Position numbers and translations under genes: made by a program. The notes below the pieces were generated by a model, which was not told the DNA's origin, searched no databases, and saw only the letters and a list, made by a program, of their open reading frames with translations. Of a stretch of DNA of 32,000 nucleotides, positions 3,772 to 32,000 are shown piece by piece (the first letter of the stretch is position 1; each line of letters begins with the position of its first letter). The stretch spans positions 25,736 to 57,735 of the forward strand of contig NZ_NEGA01000024.1 in NCBI RefSeq assembly GCF_002135315.1, given 5' to 3'. This DNA is from Acinetobacter sp. ANC 3903. GTDB lineage: Bacteria; Pseudomonadota; Gammaproteobacteria; Pseudomonadales; Moraxellaceae.

Positions 3772-3882
3772 CTGTGCATGGATAAAAAGTCAAAATAATA
3801 AATTAAAGACGATAAAATCATTTAATGTGCTTAAACATATACTAATAATTAAATTTATAACTAGAAAAATTAGAGGCATCTT

Positions 3883-4587: not shown

Positions 4588-4602
4588 AATAGGATAGTCT
4601 TC

Positions 4603-10485: not shown

Positions 10486-11900
10486 ATAAACTGATGCTGG
10501 GAACTTTTAGCAGTATTTTTCTATTGCTGAGTATGGTCATTATTTATTACTGGCGTGATATCCAATATGATCCTTCAGCTCTAGATTTAGTCTCATACTT
10601 TTTTGTTCTACCTGTCCTTTTGTCTTTAATTTTGCTTGCGCCATATTTCATTTATCGGGCTTATCGGTTATATATACGGCGTCATGAACAGCAAAATCAA
10701 ACCCTATTAGAACAGCAGCAATTGAATAAAGCTCAGACAGATAAGGAGCCCAAAATTGAAGAGATTAAATGGCTTAATTTAAATGTCTTTTCATCATTTG
10801 CATGTCATGCATTTGGTGAAAATGAAAAAATTATAGAGGGGCTAAAAAATTTTAAAACGCCGAAATTAGATTATAACTTGGCAAATAGTGTTGGTTTACC
10901 TGTTTTGTCATATAGAATTCATCCACTTGATCATGTGGCAGAGCTACAGGAGGATGAGCAGAATAGCGGAGATCAAAAGGGTCGGTTAGCACGTATAAAA
11001 GCTTTAATTCAACAACAATTAGAACAACAAACTGAAATCTTATGGCAAGTGGCTGAACATTTAAAGCAATCTGCATTATTTTATGATAGTGAACTAGCCT
11101 ATCAATATCGGATGCATCCTGCATGGAACAACCCCGATACTACAACCGATGATAAAGATGATCAGGACATTTCAATTGAGCAGGTGCCACGTCTAAATCG
11201 ACTTAACATTCATCTCTTGTTATCAGACAACTTATTACAGGCTTGGGATGAACATTTAACGCAGGAAATAGTGCTTCATTTTATAGAATCGTTGGGAATT
11301 CTTTCGCAGCAAATACATCTGCAGCCTCATTATATTGCCTCGCAAAACGCTTATACATACTGGCTTAAATTATTGGAGCAAATTTCAACCCAAAGTGATG
11401 AAGTTTCATTGCTCATCAATGTGGATTCGGAAATTGACCAAACATTGCTGGATGAAAAAATGTGGCAGATGGATAATTATTTGGCAGCAGAATTTGCATC
11501 CAGCTGGTGTGTGGCGGCGGCAGAGGTGAAGATCAATAACATAGATGCCATCAAGGTGCTTAAAGTTGCCAGCGATGGAGATGATTTATCTATTTGTCTC
11601 AATCAAGTAGTAACTCATCATACAGATCAAATCCAACAAGAACAGCCTTTTGTATTGGTTTTAGATGATGCAACGGATATAAAAAGTATTAAAAAAAATA
11701 ATCAGAGATTTGCACCCGCCTTAATTGAAACCCATCATCTTTTATATACAAAATCAATGCTGGGTCATACACAACATCTGGCAAAGATTTTTGGCTTTAT
11801 GTTGGGTATGCACCTGCCAGAGGAAATAACAATAATGATATACAGTAGCGATCAAGCTTCAACCTATGCTTTTTTTCAAACTAAAATTGTAGAAAATTGA
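10482..11900 (+). CDS. Inner-membrane T6SS-associated protein in the position of Acinetobacter AsaB/TsmK (assignment by synteny)
   Basis: The ATG at 10482 forms an ATGA overlap with the tssG stop, so it is preferred over the track's upstream start at 10455. Two N-terminal TM helices (GTFSSIFLLLSMVIIYYW, LVSYFFVLPVLLSLILLAPYFIY). No family recognised by eye. Confidence 0.7.
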   Translation: MNKLMLGTFSSIFLLLSMVIIYYWRDIQYDPSALDLVSYFFVLPVLLSLILLAPYFIYRAYRLYIRRHEQQNQTLLEQQQLNKAQTDKEPKIEEIKWLNLNVFSSFACHAFGENEKIIEGLKNFKTPKLDYNLANSVGLPVLSYRIHPLDHVAELQEDEQNSGDQKGRLARIKALIQQQLEQQTEILWQVAEHLKQSALFYDSELAYQYRMHPAWNNPDTTTDDKDDQDISIEQVPRLNRLNIHLLLSDNLLQAWDEHLTQEIVLHFIESLGILSQQIHLQPHYIASQNAYTYWLKLLEQISTQSDEVSLLINVDSEIDQTLLDEKMWQMDNYLAAEFASSWCVAAAEVKINNIDAIKVLKVASDGDDLSICLNQVVTHHTDQIQQEQPFVLVLDDATDIKSIKKNNQRFAPALIETHHLLYTKSMLGHTQHLAKIFGFMLGMHLPEEITIMIYSSDQASTYAFFQTKIVEN

Positions 11901-11956
11901 CTTGAAGTACTCACCATTTAAAGATGAATAAAAATAAATAGAATAACGAGAATCAC

Positions 11957-14900
11957 ATGTTTTATACCGTTTTAGCTTATGTCTGGCAATATGTAACCCA
12001 TCCCAAAGCCATTATTGCACTCTCTTTTTTAGTGGCATTGATTTCTTCCTATAACATCATTCCTCGAAATATTTTTTGGGCGCTCGTTGCAACCTATGTT
12101 TTTGCACTTATCGGCTATGGCGTATATCGGCTAATTCAAAAATATCGTCATGCACAACAGGGTGCAGTGCTTGCTGAAGCTATTGAAAATGATACACAAG
12201 CTGAATATGGCAAGCAGAAAGATACGCAAGAATTACAGCTGATGAGTCAGCAAATGAAAGAATCGATCCAGCTGATTCGTAAATCAAAGTTGGGAGATAA
12301 AAAAGGCAATGCAGCACTATATGAATTACCTTGGTATATGGTGATTGGCAATCCAGCTGCAGGTAAAAGTTCGGCAATTTATCATTCAGGGCTGAAATTT
12401 CCCTTTGAGGATTCCCATCAAAAAAGGGTTTCTTCTGGTCTAAGTGGCACTCGAAACTGTGATTGGTTTTTCTCTACCGAAGGGGTGTTACTGGATACTG
12501 CCGGGCGCTACTCAGTTTATGCTGAGGATCATTCTAAATGGTTGGGCTTTTTGAATTTATTAAAGAAAAACCGTACTCGAGCACCGGTTAACGGTTTAAT
12601 TGTGGTGGTCAGCATTGCCGAACTGATCAGCCAAAGCCCCGAGAAATCAATCCAGCTGGCTAAAAATTTAAGAGCGCGCATTCAAGATATTACCGAACGT
12701 TTAGAGATATTTGCACCTGTTTATTTAGTATTTTCCAAAATGGATTTAATCGCAGGATTTACTGAATTTTTTGAATGTTATGACGTCGACGAGTTTGATC
12801 AGGTGTGGGGAGCGACTTTAAAGTACGAGCCAAATTCCGTCCAGAATGTAATGACGATTTTTGAACAGCATTATGCTGTTTTATATGATGGTTTAAAAGG
12901 GCTAAGTACCACGCATCTTAGTCGACGTCATAGCCAGAATATTTCACCCAGTGTGATGACATTTCCTTTAGAGTTCAAAAGTTTAAAACCAGTACTGAAA
13001 ACTTTTATTGGGACTTTATTTGAAGAAAATCCCTATCAGTTTAAACCCGTATTCCGTGGTTTCTATTTTACCAGTGCCTTACAACAAGGTGTAATTGAAA
13101 GTCCAATGACCCAGCAGATTGCACAGGATTTTCATTTATCACAAAACTTAAATAGTGAAAATACTGAACTGGGTAATTCGACTTCACAAAACCATGGCTA
13201 CTTTCTAAAAGGTTTATTTTCAAATGTGATTTTGAAAGACCAAAATCTGGTTAAACAGCATATTAATCCTGTACGTAAGAAACAACGTTACTTAGCCTTT
13301 ATCACTGCCTTATTGGGTATATCCATTGTTTTAAGTTTATGGGTCTGGTCATATCGGAATAATCAGCAATTGATTGCCGATGTGCAATCCGATCTGGACA
13401 AGGTCGTCCAACTGGAAAAGCAATCCGGACAAGAACTCTCTACGCAACTGAATGCCTTGCTGATTTTACAGGAGCGTATGCAGCAGCTTGATCAATTTGA
13501 AGAAACTCAGCCTCTACAGTTTAGCTTTGGACTGTATCAGGGTCATGCGTTGCTAGAAAAATTACAAACTGAATATTTAAAGGGCATTAGACAACTGCTT
13601 TTGCAGCCGACACAACAGAATATTGCACAGTATTTACAACGTATAAAAAGCAACGAAGCCACTTTAAAGGCCAATCATGTTAGTGTTGAAATAAAACAAG
13701 TCGATAAAAATCAGCAATATTTAGAACCATCTGAAAGCAATCCCCAAGATGCTTACAATGCTTTAAAGGCTTACTTAATGCTGAGTAATCCTCAATATAT
13801 GGATTCAAGTCATTTAGGTGATCAGTTGACACGTTTCTGGCGTCCTTGGCTGGATTCAAACCGTGGCCTGATGCCACGTGGTGAAATGATCCAGAAAGCG
13901 GAGCAAATATTATCCTATAGCATCACGCTGGCACATACTCAAAATTTTCCAATCCTTGAAGCAGACGCTTTGCTGGTTGATCAGACCCGTCAGGTTTTAT
14001 TGGCTGTCGTTCGGGGGATGCCTGCACGGGACCGTGTGTATAACGAAATCAAAATGCGTGCCGCAGTGCGTTATCCTGCTGTAACTGTAAAGCAGTTAGT
14101 GGGGGGAAATGGCCAAAATATAGTACTGGGAAGTTATGCCTTACCTGGCATGTTTACTTATAAAGCATGGACTGAATATGTAGAAAAAGCGATTGATGAT
14201 GCCGCAAACCGCCCAATAGATAGCAAAGACTGGGTGTTAAATAGCACTCAATCGGATGATCTCACTTTTAGTGGCAGTTCAGACCAGATTCGTAAGCAAT
14301 TAACAGCACTATATAAGCAGCAATATATCGCTGAGTGGCGTAAATTTTCAAATGGCATTTACTATGCCAAGGCCAGCGATTTTAACCAGCAAACAAAAAA
14401 TATTGATATCTTGGGCGAGCCAGAAAATTCCCCCATTCGTGCCATTATTCAGCATATTGCTCAAGAAACCAGTTGGGATAACCCAGTGCTTCAGGCAGAA
14501 CTGGCTACACCGAAAACTGGTCTCATGGCATGGCTTAAAGCTAAAATTTTAACTCAGGATGAGCCTAAAGCGACGAACCTGGCATCGAATCAGGCACAAA
14601 GAGTCATTTTAAAAGAATTCCAGATGTTCTATCAATTAATTCGTAAACGCGATGATCAGCAAAACAAATCTTTATTAGATGAATATATGCAATCACTTGC
14701 ACAGGTCAGGAGTAAATTTAATGATCTGAAGAGTACCGGGGATATTGGTCCGGCAGCCTTTATTTTAGTCAAGCAAACGATTAATGATCAAAACTCTGTT
14801 TTTAATAATAGCCAAAAAATAATTGATGAAAAAATGACTGTTGGACTGAATGACCCAGATCAGCAAGTTCTGCAAAAATTATTAATGAGTCCCTTAACTC

Positions 14901-17558: not shown

Positions 17559-17582
17559 GTTATTGCATTTAAAAACGATATT

Positions 17583-17618
17583 AAATAAGGAAGCATGATG
17601 CTTCCTTATTTATTTTTA
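17583..17618. terminator. Bidirectional intrinsic terminator between the tagN-like gene and the amidase gene
   Basis: Near-perfect palindrome AAATAAGGAAGCAT-G-ATGCTTCCTTATTT, followed by ATTTTTAT. Lies between convergent genes. Confidence 0.75.
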
Positions 17619-20589: not shown

Positions 20590-20806
20590 GTGGAAGTATG
20601 ATTTATGAAAAGTAACTGTCTATAAATATAACTGTATTTAGTCAATAAAAAAGTATTTTTATAACAGATTTATCTAAAAATGCAGATCTGTTATAAATTT
20701 TATGGCTGATGTTGTATCTATTAAATTCAAAAATATTTGCAATACTAGCGCACACTGAATGCAAACGCATGATGAATGTGCATAAAATGTTGAAATGGAG
20801 TGATAA

Positions 20807-21601
20807 ATGTTTGAAATATCGCAACTAAATTTGATCCAGCAGTTGCTTAAAGGACATAAAGTTTCTTCACAGATTGAAGGGTTACTCAAGCAAAAATATT
20901 TAAATGTCGAAGCCACATTATTAAGAGCAAAAAAGCTCAGAGAAATAGAGAAGGCAGGGCACATTGTGATCCTGCAAGACCCCATTACAGCGCATATCGA
21001 AGATGTAGCTTATTTGTTCTCACCATTTATATTGGCTAATCTGAATCGGAAGGTTATTTATTACACAGCTAAAAATGAACAAATTTTAAGCATTTTGTCG
21101 CGGTATTATCAGGCTAGTTATAACAATCTCAGCTTTAATTTTGATGAACTATTGGACAGCCTGGGCTTATCTCTACAATTAAATGATGAAGAAATGACTC
21201 GGGAAGAATTATTTTATCTAAATTTAATCAAAGGCTTATGTAATTCAAAAGTATCTAGGATGGTTTGTATTACGCGTCTGAATGTCAATCTGGAATTGAT
21301 TAATCTAATTGCTGATTTTCTGCATGTGCAGATTCAAGTCATTGCTCTAGAACAGCAATCTGAATACTTAGATATAAATAAAATCAATATGTTACAACTA
21401 TTGTTTAAGAATAAAAGTGATGAATACATACAACTTTGTACAAAATTTTCTCAAATTAATGCCAAGTTGCTGAAAATATTAGATTTATATAGATTTGATC
21501 AAGCCCAATTGCTGGTAGATGATATGTTTTATTCAGAGCATATTTTTGAAAAACTTTCAGTCTATGGTGAATATATGCAAACTAAAATTCAATATCATTA
21601 A
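20807..21601 (+). CDS. Hypothetical protein (264 aa), no family recognised
   Basis: Long ORF divergent from the MocR gene. Leu/Ile/Asn-rich and predicted helical. No motif identifiable by eye. Confidence 0.6.
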   Translation: MFEISQLNLIQQLLKGHKVSSQIEGLLKQKYLNVEATLLRAKKLREIEKAGHIVILQDPITAHIEDVAYLFSPFILANLNRKVIYYTAKNEQILSILSRYYQASYNNLSFNFDELLDSLGLSLQLNDEEMTREELFYLNLIKGLCNSKVSRMVCITRLNVNLELINLIADFLHVQIQVIALEQQSEYLDINKINMLQLLFKNKSDEYIQLCTKFSQINAKLLKILDLYRFDQAQLLVDDMFYSEHIFEKLSVYGEYMQTKIQYH

Positions 21602-21609
21602 ACTAAAAA

Positions 21610-21638
21610 AGCAGCATGCTTGACGAAAACATGCTGCT
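21610..21638 (-). terminator. Intrinsic terminator (perfect 9-bp stem) serving the minus-strand small ORF
   Basis: AGCAGCATG (21610-21618) and CATGCTGCT (21630-21638) with an 11-nt loop. On the minus strand the hairpin is followed by TTTTTT. Confidence 0.65.
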
Positions 21639-21664
21639 TGATCATAGATTTAGTTATATTGAAA

Positions 21665-21823
21665 TCATGGAAGATATGAATTATCTGCATTAACCACGAA
21701 TGCGACACCAATACAGAACAATAAAGCATAAATCCCGAACCAAATGATGGCGCGTTTGAAAGCTTTATCTGAAATGCCACTGTCAGCGTATTTTTGCTGT
21801 CTTTTTTGCTCTTGATCGTTCAT
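21665..21823 (-). CDS. Small membrane protein (52 aa), below the ORF-track cut-off
   Basis: Manual translation: MNDQEQKRQQKYADSGISDKAFKRAIIWFGIYALLFCIGVAFVVNADNSYLP. One clear TM helix, followed by the terminator at 21610-21638. The track's ORF 21598..21780 is in a different frame and looks spurious. Confidence 0.45.
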   Translation of the reverse strand: MNDQEQKRQQKYADSGISDKAFKRAIIWFGIYALLFCIGVAFVVNADNSYLP

Positions 21824-22011
21824 CAGGCTATCTCAATTTGTCTATCTGTTAGCTTGATTATTGACGATGTAAATGAGTATCTATAGATACAAAAAAGTGA
21901 AATATTTATATAACAGTTATAGTTTTAAATTTGCAGGGGCATATTGAAAGCGTGCTATGAATAGCTATTATAAATCCAATGCAAAAAATTTAGACCTGGC
22001 TTTAAACGGAT

Positions 22012-22623
22012 TTATCTATTTTCCAGAATGGATAAAAATGCTTCGATAAAGTTAGGTAGTCTTTTATGATGAATTTGTCCCACTTTAATGATTTCATAAG
22101 TTAAACCATCGGGTTGGAGCTTCTCACTTTCTATTTTTAACAGTTGTTGGGTTGACTGTAAGCCCTTTAACCAATCTTCAAGTGCTTTGATCGGTATATC
22201 ATTTTTAATATCGCCACCTTGCATCGCTGTTTTAAAATGGCTTAAGGTTGTACTGTCTTTAAAGCAGACTTCAACCCGATGTTCGGTACTGTTAAATAGA
22301 TCATGCTTGATCACAAACAGAAATTTTCCACTGACAGGTTTTAGGGCAGTGATATAAATATTTTTATGGTTTAGGCTATATCTTTTATTTTTGGCATTAT
22401 TAAATTCTGAAGTCCATCCTTGAGACTCTAAAAATTTATCCATTTCAATGAAGATCAGATCGGTGACTTGTTCTTCAAGCGTATCTGCAAGCTCCTTAAG
22501 TTCATGGCTAATCACGATTAAATTATTTTCCAACTTTGATCGTTGGGATTCCTCATCATCATGCTGTTTGGATTGGGCTAATACGGCTTGGAAGCGTTGT
22601 TCAGGCGTCATGATTCTACTCAC
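22012..22623 (-). CDS. Hypothetical protein (203 aa), no family recognised
   Basis: Single long ORF in an AT-rich region, with a charged coiled-coil-like N-terminus. Confidence 0.6.
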   Translation of the reverse strand: MSRIMTPEQRFQAVLAQSKQHDDEESQRSKLENNLIVISHELKELADTLEEQVTDLIFIEMDKFLESQGWTSEFNNAKNKRYSLNHKNIYITALKPVSGKFLFVIKHDLFNSTEHRVEVCFKDSTTLSHFKTAMQGGDIKNDIPIKALEDWLKGLQSTQQLLKIESEKLQPDGLTYEIIKVGQIHHKRLPNFIEAFLSILENR

Positions 22624-23101
22624 TTGATATAAAGCCTTATGCGTTAATGATGTGGCTGAATATATATAATTGCAAGTAAGAAGAAGGTACTTAAACCAAT
22701 CGTTTTCAACAGAATATAGATGAGTGTAAAATTATATATTATTGATATGTAAATATAAATTAATTAATTTTGATATCTGTGATATGTAATAGTGGTTAAA
22801 ATAAATACACATTTTGTAGCGATTCAACGAAGCAAATTTTTATTGCGCAAATTTCTCACTGGAATCCGAAAAAATTAATGGAATAAGAAGCAACTCAATA
22901 GAACATTTCTAATAAGTCACGTTAAGGGAGAATAATACTGTTGGGTAAGTAACAACTCTAATTTTAATATTTAGATAACTTGCAGACTATGAAAAGATGA
23001 CATACCTAATGACACTTAATTATTTTGATCTAAATTTACTAAGATTGAATAATTATTGCCAAACAATCATTTTTGAATCATTGACGTCCGTAAACAGAGT
23101 A

Positions 23102-24074
23102 ACCCCAATCCTGTTTAAGCCAATGATTCCATAATCTGAATGATTGGCTTATTTCGATGGATTAATTGGTATGCACATACCGAAGCATAAATCCCACTTA
23201 AAAAGCCCGAAATACTACGAGCTTTACTTGTTACTAAATTGTATTGTCCTTTCAATAGGCTGAATAACGTTTCTATTTTATTGCGCTGTTTTAAGTGATA
23301 TTCATCAGATTTTGGTAGTTGAACAGACTTCATATTCTTTCGATGATAGGTAATCAAATCAATACCTTGATCTCTTAATCTGCTTTTTAATTCTTGGCTG
23401 ATATAGCCACGATCTCCATAGAGCTTCGCTTGTAAACCTGTAACTAACTGCTCAACCATTTTAATGTCAGCAATATGCCCATTGGATAATGCTGAGCTAA
23501 TGATCTCGCCAAATTGATTCATCACGATATGTAATTTACAGCCATAAAACCACCCCATCGAGCTTTTACCGCGAGATGCGATCTTGGCTAATGATTTATG
23601 GCGTTGGATGCGTTGATTTTTACAGACAGGTAGAGTCGTTGAGTCAATCCATAAATATTGTTTGTATTGATCTTTCATCAGAGCGACATGTAGAGCGTGT
23701 AGTGCCAATTGATGCCTATTAATCAGGTGAATCATGCGATGGTAACAGGGCAAGCTTTTAAATAAATGACTTTTATCCTGTTTCAACCATGAGAAGAATG
23801 CTTTGAAATTGTTGAAGTGAGAACACTTATACCAAATGGCGATAAAGGTGATTTCAGAGATACTCAGTTGTGCTTTTCGGATTCTTAAGCAGTGATTGCT
23901 TTGCTTTAGAAATTTCCAATAAGTTGCTTCAAATTTAAGAAAGAAATCATCAATTACACAGAATAATTCGGTACTATTGAACATAAGGACTAGAGTTGTG
24001 AGTTTGGTGTGGTAACTCAACTGATGGCTCTAGTCCTCCCGTTTTTCAAGTTAAGTCTTATCCGCGATTCGGGT
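23102..24074 (-). mobile_element. IS982-family insertion sequence (ISAba4/ISAba9/ISAba825-like), about 973 bp, apparently intact
   Basis: Imperfect terminal inverted repeats: ACCCCAATCCTGTTTAAGCC (23102->) versus ACCCGAATCGCGGATAAGAC (reverse complement of 24074<-), about 14/20 matches. Flanked by the direct repeat AGAGTA at 23096-23101 and 24075-24080. Single DDE transposase ORF. Confidence 0.85.
23115..23984 (-). CDS. IS982-family DDE transposase
   Basis: Probable start is MFNSTELFCVIDDFF (ATG at 23984; the track extends to 23115..24020). Family-typical blocks: LWIDSTTLPVCKNQRI, WFYGCKLHIVMN, LYGDRGYIS, YHRKNM...RNKIETLFSLLK. Confidence 0.88.
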   Translation of the reverse strand: MFNSTELFCVIDDFFLKFEATYWKFLKQSNHCLRIRKAQLSISEITFIAIWYKCSHFNNFKAFFSWLKQDKSHLFKSLPCYHRMIHLINRHQLALHALHVALMKDQYKQYLWIDSTTLPVCKNQRIQRHKSLAKIASRGKSSMGWFYGCKLHIVMNQFGEIISSALSNGHIADIKMVEQLVTGLQAKLYGDRGYISQELKSRLRDQGIDLITYHRKNMKSVQLPKSDEYHLKQRNKIETLFSLLKGQYNLVTSKARSISGFLSGIYASVCAYQLIHRNKPIIQIMESLA

Positions 24075-24141
24075 AGAGTAACAAGTTTAGTTAAATGAGT
24101 AACGTATAGCGAACATGCTTTATATAAATTACATAGTTAGC

Positions 24142-24169
24142 ATTTCGTATAATATATATTATGTTAAAT
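24142..24169 (+). other. dif site (XerC arm ATTTCGTATAA, central TATATA, XerD arm TTATGTTAAAT); left junction (attL) of the integrated phage array
   Basis: 28-bp match to the gammaproteobacterial dif layout. The XerD arm is identical to E. coli dif (TTATGTTAAAT) and the XerC arm equals the Acinetobacter dif/pdif XerC consensus. Repeat identity with the second site starts at 24157. Confidence 0.85.
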
Positions 24170-24213
24170 AAGATATCCGAGATTGCGCCCTACATAACTC
24201 AGCCGTTGGCGCA

Positions 24214-24259
24214 ACTTCACTGGAGAGATTCACCAACATATTAATCTCTCCAGTGAAGT
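24214..24259. other. Perfect 17-bp inverted repeat hairpin (candidate packaging signal or minus-strand origin); second copy at 25717-25762
   Basis: ACTTCACTGGAGAGATT (24214-24230), a 12-nt loop, then AATCTCTCCAGTGAAGT (24243-24259). It is preceded by a 7-bp stem, TTGCGCC (24183-24189) paired with GGCGCAA (24208-24214). Confidence 0.6.
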
Positions 24260-24301
24260 ATCTTAATGAACATAATATACGTTATGCCGAAATCCGTGAG
24301 C

Positions 24302-24332
24302 TTTGGAAGTTTATATTTTTATTTTGGAAGTT
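24302..24332. repeat. Two 10-bp direct repeats TTTGGAAGTT spaced 21 bp apart (iteron-like); second copy at 25805-25835
   Basis: TTTGGAAGTT at 24302-24311 and at 24323-24332, inside the 415-bp repeat. Confidence 0.5.
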
Positions 24333-24543
24333 AATTTATAAACGTCCAATTCATTTTACTAAGCAACTCACCTACGGATCACAAAGCAGCTAATAGGATG
24401 ACATTACAAGCCTAACAATTCAGGAAAAAATAAATACGCCAATCCATAGAATAAAAATGGCTGCAATGCCAATAAAAGCAATGCAAAAATTAAAGCCTTC
24501 AAATTGATATTTTTTAACATAAAAGCCCTATTTTGATTCAAAT

Positions 24544-24690
24544 TTAGTCAATCGTAACCCGCATGTTATAAATGGGGGTGGAAAAATCAGTCAGGAGACT
24601 CGATTCAGGACTGAAGAAGTGTTGATTTAGGGTACTTTCCCCCGTGTTTTCACGGGTAATGGTGCTTTTTTGATCATTCTTATTTTTCAT
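24544..24690 (-). pseudogene. Truncated Rep: first 42 codons of the phage replication initiator fused to intergenic sequence (48-aa stub)
   Basis: 24572-24690 is identical to 31882-32000. Translation is MKNKNDQKSTITRENTGESTLNQHFFSPESSLLTDFSTPIYN then MRVTID*. Confidence 0.85.
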
Positions 24691-24890
24691 GATTAACCCC
24701 AATTAAAACAAACTGAATAGCCAGAGATAAAACCTAAAACAACACCAAGAGCATATGAAGCTAAATGTAGACCTGACATGTAATCACCCCAAACAACGAG
24801 TTAAATGGAATGAAATAAGACCTTTGAACATGATTGAATGACAACGAGGACATTCAGCAAGGTCGATTTGATGAACTGCATTAATTCGCA

Positions 24891-25139
24891 TTAGCAATCC
24901 CCCATTTCTTCTTTTAATTCAGCATTTGTTTTCTTATAGAGATCTGCATAAGCATCAATGTATGAATAGTCATAAGCCATTTCACTTGCAACAAGCGCCA
25001 AGTGTTCTAAGCACTGCTCTGTAGAGAAAGCAGGTACAAAGTTCTCTAAAGCGCATTGACCATGTTGAGAAACCAGTTCAGCAACTCGGTTAAAGGCTGC
25101 TTGGGTGAAATCTTGAGGACTCTTATAATTTAGTTCCAT
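24891..25139 (-). CDS. Phage hypothetical protein (82 aa), first gene of the leftward (replication) operon
   Basis: ORF upstream of rep' on the same strand and divergent from the 68-aa ORF. No family recognised. Confidence 0.5.
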   Translation of the reverse strand: MELNYKSPQDFTQAAFNRVAELVSQHGQCALENFVPAFSTEQCLEHLALVASEMAYDYSYIDAYADLYKKTNAELKEEMGDC

Positions 25140-25202
25140 GTAACAACATCACATGCAATGATTTTGACGAAACATAACACAATTACACGTAACAATACAA
25201 CA

Positions 25203-25225
25203 TGTGACAAAATAATATTGTCACA
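25203..25225. promoter_or_regulatory. Operator-like perfect palindrome TGTGACAA-AATAATA-TTGTCACA in the divergent promoter region
   Basis: 8-bp arms separated by 7 bp. It lies 24 bp upstream of the 68-aa ORF start, in the 109-bp gap between divergent ORFs. Confidence 0.5.
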
Positions 25226-25248
25226 AGAAACATTGTTGAGTTACTTAA

Positions 25249-25455
25249 ATGAGAAAATCTGATCTTTCAAAAACTTATAGAGTTCGCGGAGAATTTACAG
25301 ACAAGATCAAAAGCTTATCGTTAGATTTCATTATCGAAACTAAAGAAAGAATAGAAGAAGCGGATATCGTTAATGCTTTGCTTTACAAGCACTTAAACGA
25401 ATTAAAGGCAAAAGATGTAACTAAATATATAGAGGAAATAAAAAAAGCGGATTAA
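25249..25455 (+). CDS. Small phage regulator candidate (68 aa), divergent from the replication operon (repressor position)
   Basis: Only plus-strand gene of the module. Charged and helical, followed by an intrinsic terminator. The function is inferred from its position, analogous to rstR in CTXphi-type phages. Confidence 0.5.
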   Translation: MRKSDLSKTYRVRGEFTDKIKSLSLDFIIETKERIEEADIVNALLYKHLNELKAKDVTKYIEEIKKAD

Positions 25456-25490
25456 TTTGATTTTCATGGATATTGAGTACTGAACAAAAA

Positions 25491-25516
25491 GGGCCTTTTA
25501 TAGGCCCTTCTCTTTT
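25491..25516 (+). terminator. Intrinsic terminator after the 68-aa ORF
   Basis: GGGCC-TTTTATA-GGCCC hairpin followed by TTCTCTTTT. Confidence 0.6.
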
Positions 25517-25642
25517 GATACATTTTGCCAATCATAAAAAATAGTGAAAAACATTAAGTTATTGTTTTTTATAAATTACGTTTAGCTAGGGAAAAGCTCT
25601 CCGGTTTAACTCGATGTGTAATAAAATGCCAAGCTCTGACGA

Positions 25643-25672
25643 ATGTCGCATAACGTAACTATTATGTTAAAT
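25643..25672 (+). other. dif-like phage attP / tandem junction: ATGTCGCATAA - CGTAACTA - TTATGTTAAAT
   Basis: The XerD arm is identical to the one at 24159-24169. A good XerC-like arm (9/11 to ATTTCGTATAA; TCGCATAA as in E. coli dif) is found only if the central region is 8 bp. Confidence 0.6.
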
Positions 25673-26074
25673 AAGATATCCGAGATTGCGCCCTACATAA
25701 CTCAGCCGTTGGCGCAACTTCACTGGAGAGATTCACCAACATATTAATCTCTCCAGTGAAGTATCTTAATGAACATAATATACGTTATGCCGAAATCCGT
25801 GAGCTTTGGAAGTTTATATTTTTATTTTGGAAGTTAATTTATAAACGTCCAATTCATTTTACTAAGCAACTCACCTACGGATCACAAAGCAGCTAATAGG
25901 ATGACATTACAAGCCTAACAATTCAGGAAAAAATAAATACGCCAATCCATAGAATAAAAATGGCTGCAATGCCAATAAAAGCAATGCAAAAATTAAAGCC
26001 TTCAAATTGATATTTTTTAACATAAAAGCCCTATTTTGATTCAAATTTAGTCAATCGTAACCCGCATGTTATAA
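25660..26074. repeat. 415-bp direct repeat, copy 2
   Basis: Identical to 24157-24571. Confidence 0.95.
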
Positions 26075-26078
26075 GCCG

Positions 26079-26279
26079 CTATAATCTGCCAATCGTATGA
26101 TCCAACTTAATAAAAAGTACCTTTAATTGATCAATCTCTCGAGATAAATCATCATTCGATAACTGTATGTTTTCTAAATGTTTTTCTAAACATTCACGGA
26201 TAAAAATATAATCTTCTTTAAGTAAAACTCCCTTATTTCTATTGTAGCCAACTGTTCTATATAGATGTCTATTAATCAT
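26079..26279 (-). CDS. Phage accessory hypothetical protein (66 aa)
   Basis: ORF between zot and the intergenic region, divergent from the 87-aa ORF. No family recognised. Confidence 0.4.
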   Translation of the reverse strand: MINRHLYRTVGYNRNKGVLLKEDYIFIRECLEKHLENIQLSNDDLSREIDQLKVLFIKLDHTIGRL

Positions 26280-26320
26280 TCAGTGTAAAATCCGATTTTT
26301 ATCACATACTTAGATTAACC

Positions 26321-26584
26321 ATGCTAGAAAATCTATTTAATAAAAACAGATATATTTCAAACACCAATCTACTGTATAAAATTGCCAAAGATGCGTTACT
26401 TGAAAAGCATGTCATTAAACGCGGAAATCAAATTTTAGTATATGAAATCAGCAGCTTAAGACAGAAAGGAAAATTCATCAAAAGTCTGGAAATCAATAAA
26501 TTACCTATCACATTAAAATCAAAAAAATCAATCAAATATGCAAAAGTACCTAAACGTTCAGAAATCATTAAAGATTTTATTTAA
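26321..26584 (+). CDS. Phage accessory hypothetical protein (87 aa, very basic)
   Basis: Only plus-strand ORF within the structural half of the phage. Lys-rich. Followed by a GGGCG-GAACA-CGCCC hairpin at 26592-26606. Confidence 0.45.
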   Translation: MLENLFNKNRYISNTNLLYKIAKDALLEKHVIKRGNQILVYEISSLRQKGKFIKSLEINKLPITLKSKKSIKYAKVPKRSEIIKDFI

Positions 26585-26647
26585 TCAGTTCGGGCGGAAC
26601 ACGCCCTCTGTTATGCCCTATTAGATTCATTCTCCCGGATTTTGTAA

Positions 26648-28039
26648 TCAGAGAGAAGATGTTTCAGTATTTTGATTTTCCGGTTCACTCGTAGACACTC
26701 GCTCTGTAGATTGTTGATTAGAGTGTGATTGATTTGTTGAAGAATTACCCTGAGCAAAATAATTAAATGGTCTGTAACCATCTAACCACCTTCTACAATC
26801 CTTTTCAGACACTGAGAGCATATAGTTACCCTGCTGATCCACAGCAACAAGCTTACCACTGGAGAGCTTTATCACACCTGACATTCTAGGAAAGTCATTT
26901 GGATTTACTTCCTCAGGCACATATTCAAAATCATAAGGTTTTGAAGGATCATAAACATACTTCTTAACCTCTCCAGCTGAAGAAACCGATAAGCCACCTT
27001 TTGAAATATCATCAAACCATTTTGTGCATTCAGGTGTTTCAATATTTACAGCTTTTCTACAGATATTAGATAAATCTTGAATCTGCTGTTGTTGGGGTTG
27101 CTGTTGTGTCTGAGCCTTAGTCTGTTGTGGAGAAGCCGAAGACGTTGAAACAGTTTCAGCTTGAGCAGAATTCTTAAAGAATCCAAATTCAGAGGAATAA
27201 GCTCGATAGCCAGAATAAACAATTAAACAAAGAAAAAGTAAAACTGGGATTTTCAAACCCCAAGGCAATGAAGCTTTAGCTGTATGCTGTTCTGCTGAAA
27301 TGTAATACTTAAAAAGCCGTTTAGGGAAAAACCATATTTTCCAAGAAAGAGCATTTTTACGAGTAGCATTACCGAAACTATCCTGAATCTCAGAATAACT
27401 ATAAATAATCGCCAACTGCATCTTAAAAAGACGACGAAGAATTAAATGCTCAGAGGTTGCAGCCTTAACAAAGGAATTTAAAAGGTCAGGCTTTTGAGTA
27501 ACAAGAACAATGTCAAAGCCAAAATGACGATGCATAGTTAAAGCACGGCCAATATCTAAAATATCCTCTTTAGCTCTCTCAAGTGCTACCTTTTGAAGAT
27601 TGCGAACATTTTGAATTAACTGTTCTTGTTCTTTAACCTTTAAAGATAAAGGCAATTCTGTATAAACAAAACCATGCTTATTTAAAAGATCAATTTTTAA
27701 AGGAGTTGGAAGATTTGCATAATCTAGAATTTTAGTAACTTGATTATTATAGAGTTCATTAATATATCGAGGTAACTGATAATTTTTAAGCAAATCAGTC
27801 TTAGAAAAAGCTGGGTGTTCATGGGCTTCATCAAAAACAATTAAAGAACCATCTGGAAGATCTCGCCAGTCAAAAGGATTATTTGTTGAAGATGTAATAG
27901 GCAAAACACCTGGAATATTAATTCCAATGATGTTTGTAAAAATCATACGGTTAGGATTTTTTCTAACCGTTGTTTCTAATAGTTCAACACACCAAAGTGA
28001 CTTACCTGATCCAGGTGGTGCTGATATGGCTGTAAGCAT
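26648..28039 (-). CDS. Zot-like / pI-type filamentous phage assembly ATPase
   Basis: 463 aa. N-terminal P-loop ISAPPGSGKS and Walker B LIVFDEAHE. Central TM helix (IPVLLFLCLIVYSGY) and a Q-rich linker. AAGGGG RBS. Confidence 0.9.
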   Translation of the reverse strand: MLTAISAPPGSGKSLWCVELLETTVRKNPNRMIFTNIIGINIPGVLPITSSTNNPFDWRDLPDGSLIVFDEAHEHPAFSKTDLLKNYQLPRYINELYNNQVTKILDYANLPTPLKIDLLNKHGFVYTELPLSLKVKEQEQLIQNVRNLQKVALERAKEDILDIGRALTMHRHFGFDIVLVTQKPDLLNSFVKAATSEHLILRRLFKMQLAIIYSYSEIQDSFGNATRKNALSWKIWFFPKRLFKYYISAEQHTAKASLPWGLKIPVLLFLCLIVYSGYRAYSSEFGFFKNSAQAETVSTSSASPQQTKAQTQQQPQQQQIQDLSNICRKAVNIETPECTKWFDDISKGGLSVSSAGEVKKYVYDPSKPYDFEYVPEEVNPNDFPRMSGVIKLSSGKLVAVDQQGNYMLSVSEKDCRRWLDGYRPFNYFAQGNSSTNQSHSNQQSTERVSTSEPENQNTETSSL

Positions 28040-28136
28040 TTTATACCCCTTTTGTTCGATCTCCCCACGCGCACACTAAGCAGGAATCACAGGCTCATCC
28101 CGCCCAGCGCGCGCGCATAGCGATCCCACAAATGTG

Positions 28137-28415
28137 TTAAGACTTCCCTACCCAAATACGCGCACACTTGATAAATATGACAAGCTGTATCGTGGATAGA
28201 ATCATTGATAAACATAGGTCAAGCGTTAAAAGCTTAGAGAATGAAAGTGCAAGTTCAGGAAGATTATCTAAGGAATTTTGAGCTTCAATAATTAATCCAT
28301 CTAAAATATCTTTGACCCAGTTATAAGTAACTAAAGTCAGACCCGCACCCATAAGAATACGAGCAATAACACTAGAAATTAATGAAGTTAAAACAAGGGC
28401 CAACAACTTAGACAT
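28137..28415 (-). CDS. pVI-like minor coat/membrane protein
   Basis: 92 aa, strongly hydrophobic with several TM segments. Located between the pIII-like and pI-like genes, as in Ff-type and other inoviruses. Its start is 1 nt after the pIII-like stop. Confidence 0.65.
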   Translation of the reverse strand: MSKLLALVLTSLISSVIARILMGAGLTLVTYNWVKDILDGLIIEAQNSLDNLPELALSFSKLLTLDLCLSMILSTIQLVIFIKCARIWVGKS

Positions 28416-28416
28416 A

Positions 28417-29727
28417 TCAGACCCTCAATAAAATAAAGCCGCAGAAAACTAAAGTCATAAGCTGAAAAACATATTTAAGAGGCTCAATCGTGTTACAGAT
28501 CGGCTGCATTTGAACGGCTTTATTTACTTGAATACCGAAAGGCAAATCTTGTACATCAAATATAATATCAGCAGGACACGCCCTAACATTGGCTGTAATA
28601 AGATCTTTTTTAATTTCCTGTTTATCAAGCTCTTTTTCCGGAACATCAATAGGTTCAGGGGTTTCTGGAGGCTCTTTAGTCCAATCAAACCATTCCTTAA
28701 CTTTTGTAAAGAAAGATTCATTTTGTTTTAAATCAGTTTTTTGATTTTCTTTAATTTCTATGTTGTCTTGTTTTTGAACTTTAAAAAAATCACAAACAGA
28801 AGGTGCCCAAGTACAAAAATTAGGTAAAGTAAATTTACTACCTGCATCTGGTTTTGATGGATCATAAGTATCCGGTATACCATCACCATTTGTATCAGAA
28901 TTGGGATTTGGCGTTGTAGAACCATTAGGCTCAGTGCCAGGTTGAGGAGTAGCAGAATCTAAAGCAGCAGCTGTTTTTGCTTTTGGAGCACTTTCAGGGA
29001 TAGGACTATTTGGATCGTAAATATCAGTAATAACAGAAGGCAATGGAGACTTATTTTGACCTTCACCTAAAATTTCATTACCGAGTTCTGTATCAGACAA
29101 AAGTTCATACTCTTTAGGCTTAGGAGCATAAAGTGGGTTTGGCTCACTATAAATATCTTGATAAGTATTATTGCCATATTTAATATTATAGCCAAAACAT
29201 CTCATTGATTTTGCGCCAGTAATCGTACAAGAAGTAAATTTAATTTTATTATTAACATTACCAAACTGACTATTATTTAAATCAGATGAAAATTTAGTTA
29301 AAGCACCAGGACAATCAGAAACGGTATAACAAGTAACTGAAAAACCATTATTTGAAAGAATATAACGATTGGAATATTGAGTAGGATCAGCAGGATCTAC
29401 AGGCTTTTCTCTTTTAATAACTTGAGAACCCTCATCAATAAGCCAGCCCAAACCCTCAAGCATTACAGTAACAGATGTAAAAGCGGCAACACCAAAAATA
29501 CCAGCCCTAGCAGCAGAACCCAATTCAGAAGCAGCAACAGGCACACGAGCTTTATAAATAGGATCATTTGCAGCAGTAGCACCAACTTTTCGTGCAGTTA
29601 ATTCAACATTTTTAGAAGCTGAATCATAGACTTTTTCTACAATTTCCCACTTTTCAGCGGCACCTGCATATAATTCAGTAATAGAGAAAAGAAACAAAAA
29701 GGATAATAAAATAGAAATTCTCATCAT
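28417..29727 (-). CDS. pIII-like adsorption/minor coat protein
   Basis: 436 aa. Signal peptide MMRISILLSFLFLFSITELYAGA. Pro/Thr/Gly/Asn/Asp-rich linker (TPQPGTEPNGSTTPNPNSDTNGDGIPDTYDPSKPDAG). C-terminal membrane anchor LMTLVFCGFILLRV. Confidence 0.75.
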   Translation of the reverse strand: MMRISILLSFLFLFSITELYAGAAEKWEIVEKVYDSASKNVELTARKVGATAANDPIYKARVPVAASELGSAARAGIFGVAAFTSVTVMLEGLGWLIDEGSQVIKREKPVDPADPTQYSNRYILSNNGFSVTCYTVSDCPGALTKFSSDLNNSQFGNVNNKIKFTSCTITGAKSMRCFGYNIKYGNNTYQDIYSEPNPLYAPKPKEYELLSDTELGNEILGEGQNKSPLPSVITDIYDPNSPIPESAPKAKTAAALDSATPQPGTEPNGSTTPNPNSDTNGDGIPDTYDPSKPDAGSKFTLPNFCTWAPSVCDFFKVQKQDNIEIKENQKTDLKQNESFFTKVKEWFDWTKEPPETPEPIDVPEKELDKQEIKKDLITANVRACPADIIFDVQDLPFGIQVNKAVQMQPICNTIEPLKYVFQLMTLVFCGFILLRV

Positions 29728-29828
29728 TTTAAAATCCTATAGAGAGCGACGCAGATCACGACGAGAATGAAATAATTTAAAAAAGACTCAACTGACATGA
29801 TCTGCACCTAAAACACTTATGGAAAGGA

Positions 29829-30107
29829 TTATTTCTTTTTAATTACAGAAACAACCAAACCAAAAATAACGATACCCACAACAATAGTAAGCACCCAAAT
29901 ACCAGTAGAACTTAGAACTTCTTCACCACCCGCAGCCGTAGTTGCTGTTGTGACATCAGCAGCTTTAATAAAAGCGTTAGAAGAAGTTGAAACAGCTAGA
30001 GCGATAGTCGCACCAGCAGCAGCACCCATTTTGTATTTGAAACGCTGAAACCATGATTTTTCATGAATCTCTTGAGTTTCAATTTTTTCTACATTTTGTA
30101 ATCCCAT
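29829..30107 (-). CDS. pVIII-like major coat protein precursor
   Basis: Strong RBS AAGGAG 7 nt upstream of the ATG at 30107. Internal hydrophobic leader ending ...STSSNAF. The predicted mature part has an acidic/Thr-Ala-rich N-terminus, hydrophobic core IWVLTIVVGIVIFGLVV and basic tail SVIKKK. Confidence 0.75.
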   Translation of the reverse strand: MGLQNVEKIETQEIHEKSWFQRFKYKMGAAAGATIALAVSTSSNAFIKAADVTTATTAAGGEEVLSSTGIWVLTIVVGIVIFGLVVSVIKKK

Positions 30108-30130
30108 AGGATTCTCCTTTTTAAGTTAAG

Positions 30131-30316
30131 TTAGCGTGCTTTTTTTACTATCTGGAGAACACGCGTAATTATGAAAACTCCAGCAAACATTTTTAGAACA
30201 TACTTAATGAGTTCATCTCTGGCCTCATCAGTAAGTTCTGGAAGAAATGGAGTGAAAAGAACCCACTGATCACACGCCTGAGTTGCAGCATTAACGACTT
30301 CACAAACGTATGCCAT
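30131..30316 (-). CDS. Small phage protein (61 aa) with hydrophobic C-terminal segment
   Basis: Lies between the pV-like and pVIII-like genes, where inoviruses encode small virion or assembly proteins. The overlapping track ORF 30193..30399 is rejected. Confidence 0.5.
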   Translation of the reverse strand: MAYVCEVVNAATQACDQWVLFTPFLPELTDEARDELIKYVLKMFAGVFIITRVLQIVKKAR

Positions 30317-30328
30317 TTCTTAAAATCC

Positions 30329-30631
30329 TTAACTAGCTGACTTTGGCTGAACCTTTTCAGGCACCAAATCAACAAGAAGTGTTTTTGAATCAACGCCATT
30401 GTTTACGACATTAAAGATCGCTCTAGCTTTAAATGGCGGTTCAAATTTTTCAATGAGGTCATAATTCGAAGAAAGCCCCCAAGTGTATTGAGTGCTGACA
30501 ATGCCCTTAGAACGCTCACCAGATTGCATATCAGTTTCAATATAGACCTTGGTTGAATCGTAAGGCTTTCCGTTCATTTCACCCTTAGAGGCTTTAAAAG
30601 CGGTAACTACAACATCAGATTGCATTAGCAT
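30329..30631 (-). CDS. pV-like ssDNA-binding protein
   Basis: Lies immediately downstream of rep. Start chosen at ATG 30631 (AGGA 8 nt upstream); the track extends to 30664. NGKPYDS and the C-terminal LVDLVPEK resemble the f1 gene V blocks QGKPYS and LRLVPAK. Confidence 0.6.
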   Translation of the reverse strand: MLMQSDVVVTAFKASKGEMNGKPYDSTKVYIETDMQSGERSKGIVSTQYTWGLSSNYDLIEKFEPPFKARAIFNVVNNGVDSKTLLVDLVPEKVQPKSAS

Positions 30632-32000
30632 GAGTAAATTCCTTATATGAGGAGTTATTGACACCAGCCACGCCTACAAATAAAGGCATTTCATCGAGAG
30701 AACTTGTTGGTTTACAAGCATCAAGCGAAGATTTAATTGGCTGTTTTAAACGGATTGACTGCATCACAGCAGCATGAGAAAACTTGAGACGCTTCGGCAC
30801 TTCATCTTTTGGGGATGAAAGCATTGCGATTAATGCATCAGACTCAATAACTTTTGAGTATTGACGGATATATTTTCCGAATTGTTCACGGACAATTTCG
30901 ATTGAACAATCCCAGTTAATTTGAGACGTTTTTTTAACAACTTGAGTCTTTTCAGGCGTTACAAAGTCTTTTTCTAATTGCTTGGCAAGCCATTCAAAAC
31001 AAGGATATGCACCCAAAAAGTACTGTGAAGGAGACAGCAGAATATCAAGCGGAATATAACGATCCTTAGATTTAAACTCGACTTCTGCACGTGTCCAAGG
31101 ACTTAAAGGACTGCCCTCCTTTTTGCCACGTTCATAGAAACGGCAATACTTGCCACTAGTACGATCACCAACACAGAATGAACGACCCTTACCATTTGGA
31201 CGCTTCCAAGCACCCGGCTTTTCAATTTTCGGAGCACGACCACCACACCAGAAACCGTCAAGATCATCCCAGTGATCGGCAATATCTACAGATATATACT
31301 TGCCTTCAAAGTCATCATAAGCCAAGTCACAGCGGGTAATTTTTGGATTAACACAACCCTTAACTATTTCAATGCCAGTTGAAGAATCAAAGAAACGCTC
31401 ATAAGAAGTAAGCCATTTGTATAAACGGAGCTGCCAGCCTTTACGGGCCAAAGCACAGCCCGAACCGTTGATTTGTACAGATATTTTCTTAGAGCTATGG
31501 CCGTAAAGCACCATGCCGAGCATGTCTTGAAGTTCATATGCAAACTTGTAGTTATGCATACCACGATCACGTTTTTTTTCTAAGCCAAAGCCAAAAATCT
31601 CATAAAGATGGTGATCTAAGAAAGTTTCAATGCCGTAGGTTAATGAAGATTCGGCATTATCAGGATCAATAGAAAAATATTCTTTGCCTAGGGTAGATTG
31701 GCAAAAGCTAAAAGTTAGCCAGTCATGTGAAGCAATACCGTATTCATCACAAGGAACTGAATGCAGAATTGGCACATTGCCCTTTTCTGTTAGAACCATT
31801 TTTACGTTGTCGAGCTTCCGCGGGAAGGTGAACTCATCGCACTTCAGGCGAGGATCAACTGCCGTAACCCCCATATTATAAATGGGGGTGGAAAAATCAG
31901 TCAGGAGACTCGATTCAGGACTGAAGAAGTGTTGATTTAGGGTACTTTCCCCCGTGTTTTCACGGGTAATGGTGCTTTTTTGATCATTCTTATTTTTCAT
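30615..32000 (-). CDS. Rolling-circle replication initiation protein (filamentous-phage pII / replication-initiation-factor type)
   Basis: 461 aa. Blocks RCDLAYDDFEG and CRFYERGKKEG...WTRAEVEFKSKD resemble Rep_trans-type initiators. First gene of the phage operon. Its ATG is the last triplet of the window (31998-32000); the duplicated copy at 24690 shows an in-frame TAA 5 codons upstream. Confidence 0.8.
   Translation of the reverse strand: MKNKNDQKSTITRENTGESTLNQHFFSPESSLLTDFSTPIYNMGVTAVDPRLKCDEFTFPRKLDNVKMVLTEKGNVPILHSVPCDEYGIASHDWLTFSFCQSTLGKEYFSIDPDNAESSLTYGIETFLDHHLYEIFGFGLEKKRDRGMHNYKFAYELQDMLGMVLYGHSSKKISVQINGSGCALARKGWQLRLYKWLTSYERFFDSSTGIEIVKGCVNPKITRCDLAYDDFEGKYISVDIADHWDDLDGFWCGGRAPKIEKPGAWKRPNGKGRSFCVGDRTSGKYCRFYERGKKEGSPLSPWTRAEVEFKSKDRYIPLDILLSPSQYFLGAYPCFEWLAKQLEKDFVTPEKTQVVKKTSQINWDCSIEIVREQFGKYIRQYSKVIESDALIAMLSSPKDEVPKRLKFSHAAVMQSIRLKQPIKSSLDACKPTSSLDEMPLFVGVAGVNNSSYKEFTHANAI
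31867..31889 (-). other. Perfect 8-bp stem / 7-nt loop hairpin inside rep codons 38-45 (candidate plus-strand origin or nick site)
   Basis: ACCCCCAT-ATTATAA-ATGGGGGT. The mini-element deletion junction maps to the loop hexamer TTATAA. Confidence 0.5.

Follow-up and report, generated by a model that had tools for sequence, protein, structure and literature searches.

The dif locus of Acinetobacter sp. ANC 3903 carries a short phage-like unit beside a much longer inovirus prophage, which raises the question of what the short unit is and how it came about. We analysed a 32,000-nt window of a draft contig from this strain (NZ_NEGA01000024.1), in which the order of the units in the array rests on the assembly. 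Self-BLAST of the window showed that 24157–24571 is identical to 25660–26074 (415 bp, 100%), and that 24553–24690 matches 31863–32000, the 5′ end of the phage rep gene, over 138 bp with two mismatches, running to the window end. The first unit (hereafter the mini) is 1503 bp long (24157–25659), and the adjoining full phage, on the minus strand, is 7310 nt long. A first-pass annotation had described a 1.5-kb mini-phage copy in tandem with its helper, and the repeats on which this description was built were confirmed to the base, with the junction also present in unitigs of the sequencing run SRR5436198. The breakpoints had been called base-precise; their coordinates held, whereas the join proved not to be blunt. 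The two repeats have 19 bp in common (24553–24571), and it is within this shared motif that the break falls. The key point that had been overlooked is that the breakpoints sit in a conserved, duplicated 19-nt site.

Comparison of the mini with its helper showed that the differences between them are confined to the two junction bases. As had been claimed, the mini has lost 90% of rep and every morphogenesis gene, since the segment found only in the full copy (26075–31862, minus strand, about 5.8 kb, covered at 100% by unitig L002) carries the helper genes from orf66 to rep, namely orf66, zot, the pVI-like and pIII-like genes, the coat candidates, orf111 and the part of rep that starts at about codon 47. 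What the mini retains is the intergenic segment (IG) with its hairpins, a truncated rep (rep′), the junction site, a divergent orf68/orf82 control module and the attP, so that the cis parts proposed earlier (attP, hairpins, an origin-like site and the control module) are all there. The rep′ ORF (24544–24690, minus strand) encodes 48 aa, of which about 41 codons are genuine before it reads through to a stop in the IG. The 42 rep codons originally counted as kept come to about 41 up to the sequence TTATAA (24566–24571), or to 46 if the shared 19-mer is included; counterparts in other minis were traced by tblastn with rep residues 1–46. No gene other than orf82, orf68 and small ORFs makes up the mini, and none of the mini ORFs scanned (orf82, orf68 and rep′) matched a morphogenesis family.

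The reads of this strain allowed the junction to be examined independently of the contig. Two Logan unitigs from SRR5436198 match the window at 100%, L002 at 31905–26045 and L003 at 24566–25672, and their ends coincide with the deletion junction and with the end of the XerD arm, the point at which the IG parts from the host flank on the right. These are the points at which a de Bruijn graph must branch if the junction and the full phage both exist, and thus the junction is real in the reads. The last base of the window, 32000, is the A of the rep ATG and corresponds to 24690 in the mini; the control module and the right-hand att of the full copy lie beyond view. Because L003 is the sole continuation of the rep 5′ end found in the SRR5436198 unitigs, and because more than 20 relatives have orf68 and orf82 directly upstream of rep, we infer that the module past 32000 must be identical to 24691–25659. 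The right end of the full copy would then be expected to consist of the module, ATGTCGCATAACGTAACTATTATGTTAAAT and host DNA, in this order. Taken together, these sequence comparisons support the assignment of the 1503-bp unit as a deletion derivative (miniphage) of the adjacent inovirus.

The 19-nt motif occurs three times in the window (0 expected), each time on the minus strand. Site A (TTATAATATGGGGGTTACG, 31863–31881) lies inside rep at codons about 36–46 and consists of a stem, ACCCCCAT/ATGGGGGT, around the loop TTATAAT. Site B (TTATAACATGCGGGTTACG, 26056–26074) lies 4 nt past the orf66 stop codon, and the two repeats are identical at 17 of the 19 positions. The hybrid site J (TTATAACATGCGGGTTACG, 24553–24571) is the deletion junction itself, with its left flank and loop derived from A and its right arm from B: TTATAA at 24566–24571 is shared exactly, and both mismatches of J to site A are B-type. 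On the 3′ side of the motif lies the flank ATTGACTAAATTTGAATCAA (24533–24552, minus strand). It forms an imperfect inverted repeat whose centre is about 25 nt away from the loop, and it is conserved among 18 distinct B sites and among 13 J sites. A conserved 7/9-palindromic sequence, TTGACTAAATTTGAATCAA, is present about 25 nt 3′ of the loop at B and J and not at A. By analogy with other replication origins, this flank is a candidate Rep-binding site. In J, the left arm comes from A, and the right arm together with its flank from B.

Site A is predicted to fold into an 8-bp stem with a 7-nt loop (−8 kcal/mol, z = −2.4). Across 21 distinct A sites, each position of ACCCCCAT-TTATAAT-ATGGGGGT-TACG is conserved at about ≥90%, synonymous positions included, whereas the codons flanking site A show ordinary third-position variation. 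In two relatives (L022 and L023) the stem carries a compensatory C-G to A-T change, AACCCCAT/ATGGGGTT. A hairpin like that of A was also sought at the other two sites and was rejected, as B does not fold and J folds weakly. An IMG/VR scan with orf82 recovered 23 related contigs of 4–11 kb, five of them circular at 6.9–7.9 kb, which share the gene order orf68 (reverse), orf82, rep, orf111, coat, pIII, pVI, Zot and orf66. Nearly every one of these relatives has a single A site within rep and a single B site close to orf66, arranged as direct repeats. Overall, the A/B pair was found in about 20 related IMG/VR and genome phages despite 30–75% protein identity otherwise, and it persists even where Zot is about 30% and Rep about 70% identical. 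These alignments show A and B to be conserved, putatively cis-acting elements, and the mini to correspond to the B-to-A arc of its neighbour.

Next to the conservation of the sites stands the position of the crossover within them. At motif position 11, all junctions carry the B-type base; type-1 junctions have it at position 7 too, and type-2 junctions show the A-type base at position 1. This pattern of B-type bases at 11 (and 7) and an A-type base at 1 maps the crossover to the loop (TATAA).

The first-pass annotation had suggested checking whether other Acinetobacter genomes carry the mini on its own at dif, and this check was positive. From a GTDB genome scan, exact-protein look-ups and a plasmid search, we found hybrid A/B junctions bounding minis in at least ten other Acinetobacter chromosomes and in a plasmid. 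The recurrent architecture is attP, an orf68 allele, orf82, rep′ of about 46 codons, J, IG and dif. Solitary minis lie between thiolase genes and dif in A. pragensis (L030), with host genes on its flanks in Acinetobacter sp. A47 (L033), and in A. johnsonii (L029), where the upstream border is formed by insertion sequence (IS) transposase fragments. Two tandem minis follow the host CFA-synthase gene in A. bouvetii (L027), and two tandem 1269-bp minis lie between host genes on the complete A. indicus chromosome CP070997.1 (L038, phage-sense 9840–12463), with no full phage there. The same mini architecture was seen in A. baylyi (L035), while in A. gerneri (L036) and in a metagenome-assembled genome (L037) the mini lies downstream of an unrelated full phage. 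Finally, a mobilizable MOBP plasmid of A. johnsonii, NZ_CP068185.1 (L052), carries a complete mini between an attP-like and a dif-like (pdif-like) site (reverse-complement 3597–5051), which indicates that plasmid dif (pdif) sites are targets as well. A second plasmid, NZ_CP140710.1 (H2), gave a partial match of the same size as that of L052.

The relationships among these minis point to repeated independent origins. When the 656 nt upstream of J were compared, the best match was usually a full phage and not another mini, at 100% (L022), 99.8% (L031), 97.4% (L029), 96.6% (L037) and 88.5% identity; as most minis are closest to a full phage in their module and rep′, they probably arose repeatedly. 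At the level of sequence, the loci together show that junction formation is recurrent and position-specific and that the minis are integrated at dif or pdif sites. In addition, a Logan unitig from ERR11525819 (L042, 1–1341) has a 30-nt terminal overlap that closes it into a 1311-nt cycle carrying J, attP, orf68 and orf82; it stems either from a free circle of the mini or from a tandem array of nothing but minis. Several short contigs likewise fit the recurrence, as they stop precisely at TTATAA and at the XerD arm. An apparent 418-bp insertion at site A of L031 was discarded, being a scaffold gap of ten N. Some of the loci hold further remnants: in L038, the first attP is preceded on its left by about 85 bp resembling the IG (91% identity), apparently the fossil end of an older element, L027 has a similar IG-like remnant at 9544–9613, and A. 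gerneri L036 has a second perfect dif about 700 bp past the array, inverted (11537–11564 on the plus strand, 10813–10840 on the minus strand).

We then considered how such a unit is placed at dif. The left end of the array (attL) is the chromosomal dif itself, ATTTCGTATAA TATATA TTATGTTAAAT, at 24142–24169 on the plus strand, with the XerC arm at 24142–24152 and the XerD arm at 24159–24169. It is the only match in the window to the perfect Acinetobacter dif consensus (0.02 expected) and coincides with the cumulative GC-skew maximum of the window. At the mini/full junction lies attP site 1, ATGTCGCATAA CGTAACTA TTATGTTAAAT (25643–25672, plus strand), where L003 ends; the same site borders the minis in L027–L031, L036–L038 and L052. 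Within the first IG copy (24157–24571, minus strand) lie a second dif-like site, a hairpin of 17 bp, iteron-like repeats and a small ORF, and the right flank of site B is part of it as well. Its dif-like site, TTTCGGCATAA CGTATA TTATGTTCATT, lies at 24265–24292 on the minus strand (25768–25795 in the full unit) and forms an inverted repeat with attP site 1. In single-stranded DNA (ssDNA), the attP region is predicted to pair site 1 with site 2 in a forked hairpin with a bulged centre (−48.2 kcal/mol compared with −17 ± 3.1 for shuffled sequences, z = −10). A perfect hairpin with a 17-bp, 100% complementary stem (24214–24259) sits at the tip of this fold and is a candidate packaging signal or minus-strand origin. 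Nearby, at 24302–24335, are two direct iteron-like repeats, TTTGGAAGTT(T/A)AT, with an inverted TTGGACGTT copy close to them; relatives have other short repeats at this position.

On the basis of the predicted fold, the attP is of the CTXphi type, with two inverted dif-like sites that would fold as ssDNA. A double-stranded attP of the VGJphi type with an 8-bp spacer was also considered and is disfavoured by the strong ssDNA fold of the two inverted sites. No integrase domain was detected in any phage ORF scanned, and together with a dif-like attP and insertion at dif, here as at at least ten other loci, this is the profile of an integrative mobile element exploiting Xer (IMEX). An exchange on the XerC side, as in CTXphi, was not what we found. 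The central region of dif is TATATA here and TGTATA in A. indicus, and identity between the dif end and the internal attP starts at 24157, so that it takes in the final 2 nt of the central region. As both the XerC arm and the central region of the perfect dif are those of the host, the exchange point lies beside the XerD arm. In a group of relatives with the same orf82–rep core (L013–L016, e.g. L015 90–247), the attP is a different one, with two near-consensus dif-like sites in a 64-nt inverted repeat, which implies that the integration module has been swapped within the family.

The genes of the control module offer a further view of what the mini may contribute. The orf82 gene (24891–25139, minus strand; phrog_20873, E = 6.5e-37) lies directly upstream of rep in this phage family and was found in 23 viral contigs and at 11 genome loci. 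The divergent small protein gene orf68 (25249–25455, plus strand; phrog_5219) is followed on its 3′ side by a terminator-like hairpin (25489–25509, plus strand), and between the divergent orf82/rep and orf68 promoter-like sites lies an operator-like palindrome, TGTGACAATATTATTTTGTCACA (25203–25225). Homologues of orf68 numbered 192, every one annotated as hypothetical, and in relatives orf68 is swapped for alleles about 40% identical. By its position and its allelic variation, orf68 is a candidate immunity regulator. Sequence searches of Pfam, NCBIfam and the PDB gave no family for orf68 or orf82, a permissive Pfam scan of 17 orf82 homologues for XafT/DUF3653 found none, and the AlphaFold models of the two proteins had no Foldseek match in the PDB. 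The model of orf68 has one long and one short helix (predicted local distance difference test score, pLDDT, 80), and that of orf82 has a pLDDT of 65. A ribbon-helix-helix repressor was tried for orf68 and was unsupported, as its predicted model is all-helical. The 415-bp repeat had been described as intergenic; its length and 100% identity stood, and its translation also revealed a 38-aa hydrophobic peptide (MLKNINLKALIFALLLLALQPFLFYGLAYLFFPELLGL, 24404–24520, minus strand). At the counterpart position, relatives have an AGGG-ATG start directly after site B. An Rfam scan over 24000–26300 returned nothing above threshold.

The helper has the gene set of an inovirus, with a Zot/pI-type ATPase and pVI-like and pIII-like genes in one direction together with a rolling-circle initiator, and this set is consistent with the circular relatives of 6.9–7.9 kb. 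All of its genes described here lie on the minus strand: the Rep_trans initiator at 30615–32000 (PF02486, E = 1.2e-18; phrog_453, E = 8e-91), a TspB-like pIII at 28417–29727 (PF05616), a DUF2523/pVI-like protein at 28137–28415 (PF10734), Zot at 26648–28039 (PF05707) and orf66 at 26079–26279. A PHROG search added matches to phrog_197, phrog_1242 and phrog_7568 among the Zot, pVI-like and pIII-like morphogenesis genes. Judging from its domain match, Rep is a member of the pT181 RepC family (Rep_trans). An INPHARED megablast of the whole element found no matching phage.

On this evidence, we consider it rather probable that the mini is a sub-genomic rolling-circle product running from B to A, made by the Rep_trans protein, integrated by XerCD and dependent on its helper. 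By sequence and by analogy, the phage Rep would nick within the TTATAA loop. Synthesis begun at B and ended at A would free an ssDNA circle made of the IG, the attP, the orf68/orf82 module and rep′, closed by J. The two inverted dif-like sites of this circle could then fold as the forked hairpin, and the host XerCD would presumably catalyse its integration at dif; the predicted fold and the position of the mini at dif both favour such a step. As the mini lacks Rep and the virion genes, it would need the helper for replication and export; the closed 1311-nt unitig and the minis found beside unrelated phages or on a plasmid give indirect hints of such a supply in trans. In the arrangement as assembled, the order in phage sense is full phage, mini and dif, which would place J downstream of site A of the prophage. 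Replication from A to J could in this case release the exact 7310-nt genome without excision, by analogy with CTXphi-RS1 arrays. Furthermore, the mini would double the dose of the orf68/orf82 module, which could affect immunity.

The same junction might have formed without Rep, if a tandem full-prophage dimer or a replicating form had lost 5.8 kb by slippage or microhomology between the 17/19 repeats and left the mini as an inert remnant. The junction does lie within a 19-bp direct repeat, conserved repeats of this kind would give deletions at the same place in every lineage, and homologous recombination between the 1.1-kb or the 415-bp repeats could leave solitary minis. However, in six or more lineages the crossover fell within the first 6–10 nt (the loop), and never in the longest identical stretch, GGGTTACG. 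The probability of such a loop-only outcome is roughly 0.55^8 to 0.35^6 (<0.01), assuming independent events and a random crossover position. A passive deletion also leaves unexplained the conservation of A and B, including the synonymous sites in rep, and the occurrence of minis next to unrelated phages (L036 and L037), as tandem pairs without a full copy (L038 and L027), on a plasmid (L052) and in a closed unitig (L042). We therefore regard it as unlikely. Another explanation places the error in the assembly, with one full prophage in the chromosome and the 1.5-kb unit being an extrachromosomal circle or a mis-threaded collapsed or expanded repeat; in a milder form, the order counted from dif would be full and then mini. 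The source contig is a draft of 57.9 kb, and the unitig graph of L002 and L003 agrees to the same degree with dif-mini-full, with dif-full-mini and with a single prophage accompanied by a free circle. Yet the junction k-mers are present in the reads, and read pairs would need to span only the 415-bp IG to fix the order. Moreover, integrated minis are unambiguous on the complete chromosome L038, in L030 between host genes and dif, on the complete plasmid L052 and beside heterologous phages in L036 and L037. Mis-assembly is possible for the order of the units here and cannot explain the mini class, and we hold the artefact as a whole to be decidedly improbable.

That the mini is an autonomous satellite in the manner of RS1 or TLC, which landed beside this phage and was not derived from it, would suit the minis found alone or by unrelated phages (L036, L037, L030, L033 and L038), and the type-2 minis of three species are 84–90% alike. 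In this window, however, rep′ differs from the neighbouring rep solely at two junction bases, both B-derived, the module is one unbranched unitig common to both copies, and most minis are closest to a full phage, so that an independent lineage is scarcely credible as the source of this unit. The sub-genomic rolling-circle product remains our preferred explanation, and several observations weigh against it in turn. Nicking of A, B or J by Rep is so far a prediction; in this phage, site B is missing the left arm of the hairpin and forms no fold, and one mismatch leaves J with a weak fold. The 17/19 repeat could by itself yield recurrent deletions by slippage or microhomology without Rep, and the restriction of crossovers to the loop could stem from selection for a working junction and not from a fixed cut. 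CTXphi exchanges strands on the XerC side, whereas the exchange point here adjoins the XerD arm. The relative placement of the mini and the full phage is that of the draft assembly, and both L022 and L031 have their mini on the upstream side of the full copy, an order that would not serve the release of full-length genomes as a terminator. Solitary minis could be the leftovers of homologous loss of the full copy, and it would be surprising for a phage to retain a second, genome-splitting site.

A broader proposal, which goes beyond the origin of this one unit and which we put forward tentatively and with some doubt, is that the clade carries a built-in pair of Rep sites, A in rep and B after orf66, and regularly buds off an integrative mini-replicon as a self-made satellite. 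Such a satellite would insert at dif or pdif, act as a downstream terminator through which an irreversibly integrated prophage releases full genomes, and could spread or persist alone across species. Under this proposal, the mini may hold the attP, the immunity and regulatory module and a more complete recombinant origin, J, which takes its hairpin arm from A and its downstream repeat from B.

The surroundings of the array showed some additional features. An IS5-family transposase gene (DDE_Tnp_1_3, E = 1.9e-48) lies at 23115–24020 on the minus strand, about 120 bp from dif, and IS5-type transposase genes or fragments also occur beside the minis in L029 and on plasmid L052, suggesting that IS elements accumulate beside these dif arrays. 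Between a GntR-aminotransferase gene and the IS, the stretch 20600–23100 has a GC content of 31–33% compared with 36–42% elsewhere and contains ORFs of 264, 203 and 103 aa without a Pfam match; it may be further foreign DNA by dif. Self-comparison also detected palindromic inverted repeats at 3617–3681 (82% over 68 nt) and 17582–17612 (97% over 31 nt), which are unrelated to the phage.

The first-pass annotation had likened the mini to f1 miniphages and to RS1 beside CTXphi, and the analogy holds as a way of working. CTXphi and RS1 at dif1 of V. cholerae resemble the present system in being an integrase-less filamentous phage that uses XerCD at dif through an attP of two inverted, ssDNA-folding dif-like sites, in forming tandem arrays and in having a short element of the regulatory region adjoining the full phage. 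RS1 keeps an intact rstA (the Rep gene), rstB and rstR, plus rstC. In contrast, rep of the mini is cut to about 41 codons (a 48-aa ORF), which would not allow replication alone, and neither an intact initiator of its own nor an antirepressor, as in an RS1-type satellite, was found in it; in this respect the comparison with RS1 failed. The mini further differs from CTXphi and RS1 in being the precise arc between two origin-like sites of its helper, and in the exchange beside the XerD and not the XerC arm. For CTXphi, chromosomal release needs tandem copies or a second downstream origin, and RstA nicks in the apical loop (PMC4439123).

The miniphages (defective interfering particles) of Ff phages (f1/M13) are likewise helper-dependent deletion derivatives that retain the origin and IG signals. 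In an engineered Ff two-origin 'microphage' cassette, a small circular ssDNA results from an initiator and a terminator origin arranged as direct repeats (PMC4403547), and this two-origin principle matches the B-to-A arc of the mini. However, Ff miniphages are episomal, arose in the laboratory at high multiplicity and have no attP or regulatory genes, whereas the Acinetobacter site pair is natural and conserved in wild-type genomes, and the mini is integrated and inherited across species. The 'cheater' miniphages of Pf4 and Pf5 in P. aeruginosa have recurrent deletions of structural genes with edges within a few nucleotides of each other (PMC11996451). These retain the replication functions, are transient and lead to prophage loss, and no conserved duplicated site or stable dif integration has been described for them. 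With the origin of pT181, the present sites share the Rep family, a candidate nick site in a hairpin loop and a downstream imperfect inverted repeat, here about 25 nt from B and J. The pT181 origin hairpin lies in the 5′ part of rep, as site A does here. Unlike in pT181, the hairpin (A) and the repeat (B) are at separate sites, and there is no similarity to the pT181 nick-site sequence. In the pT181 family, the nick is made in the hairpin loop, and the Rep-binding repeat ICRIII lies 23 bp downstream (PMC4797284).

Tandem arrays have also been reported for the A. baumannii Af phages, where prophages are flanked by a replication/regulation module, in a study without junction analysis (PMC11209303). 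The short units with rep and regulators that are seen in complete genomes keep a whole rep of 380–405 aa, some of the Phage_CRI type, and the paper describes neither origin-like sites nor solitary minis. The A. baumannii loci L044–L051 (CP144563, CP070358 and CP113080) have very long arrays of 6.5-kb Af-like prophages and roughly 2-kb units; the latter carry a whole rep (Rep_trans of 380–385 aa or Phage_CRI of 405 aa) and small regulators and are more RS1-like than the mini of the window.

Neither the paired sites nor this family of minis was described in the literature that we searched. Miniphages and satellites like RS1 are mainly familiar as by-products of laboratory work or as isolated Vibrio elements; here, they appear as a natural, genus-wide family of integrated miniphages with edges set by two conserved origin-like sites. 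Acinetobacter dif and pdif sites also move carbapenemase modules, and the mini provides an annotation rule for the confusing arrays at these sites. It also gives a precise candidate origin and nick site for a large group of uncharacterised Rep_trans inoviruses. The model predicts that an array of a full phage plus a mini would be the virion-producing unit, and it offers a testable mechanism by which phages may make their own satellites.

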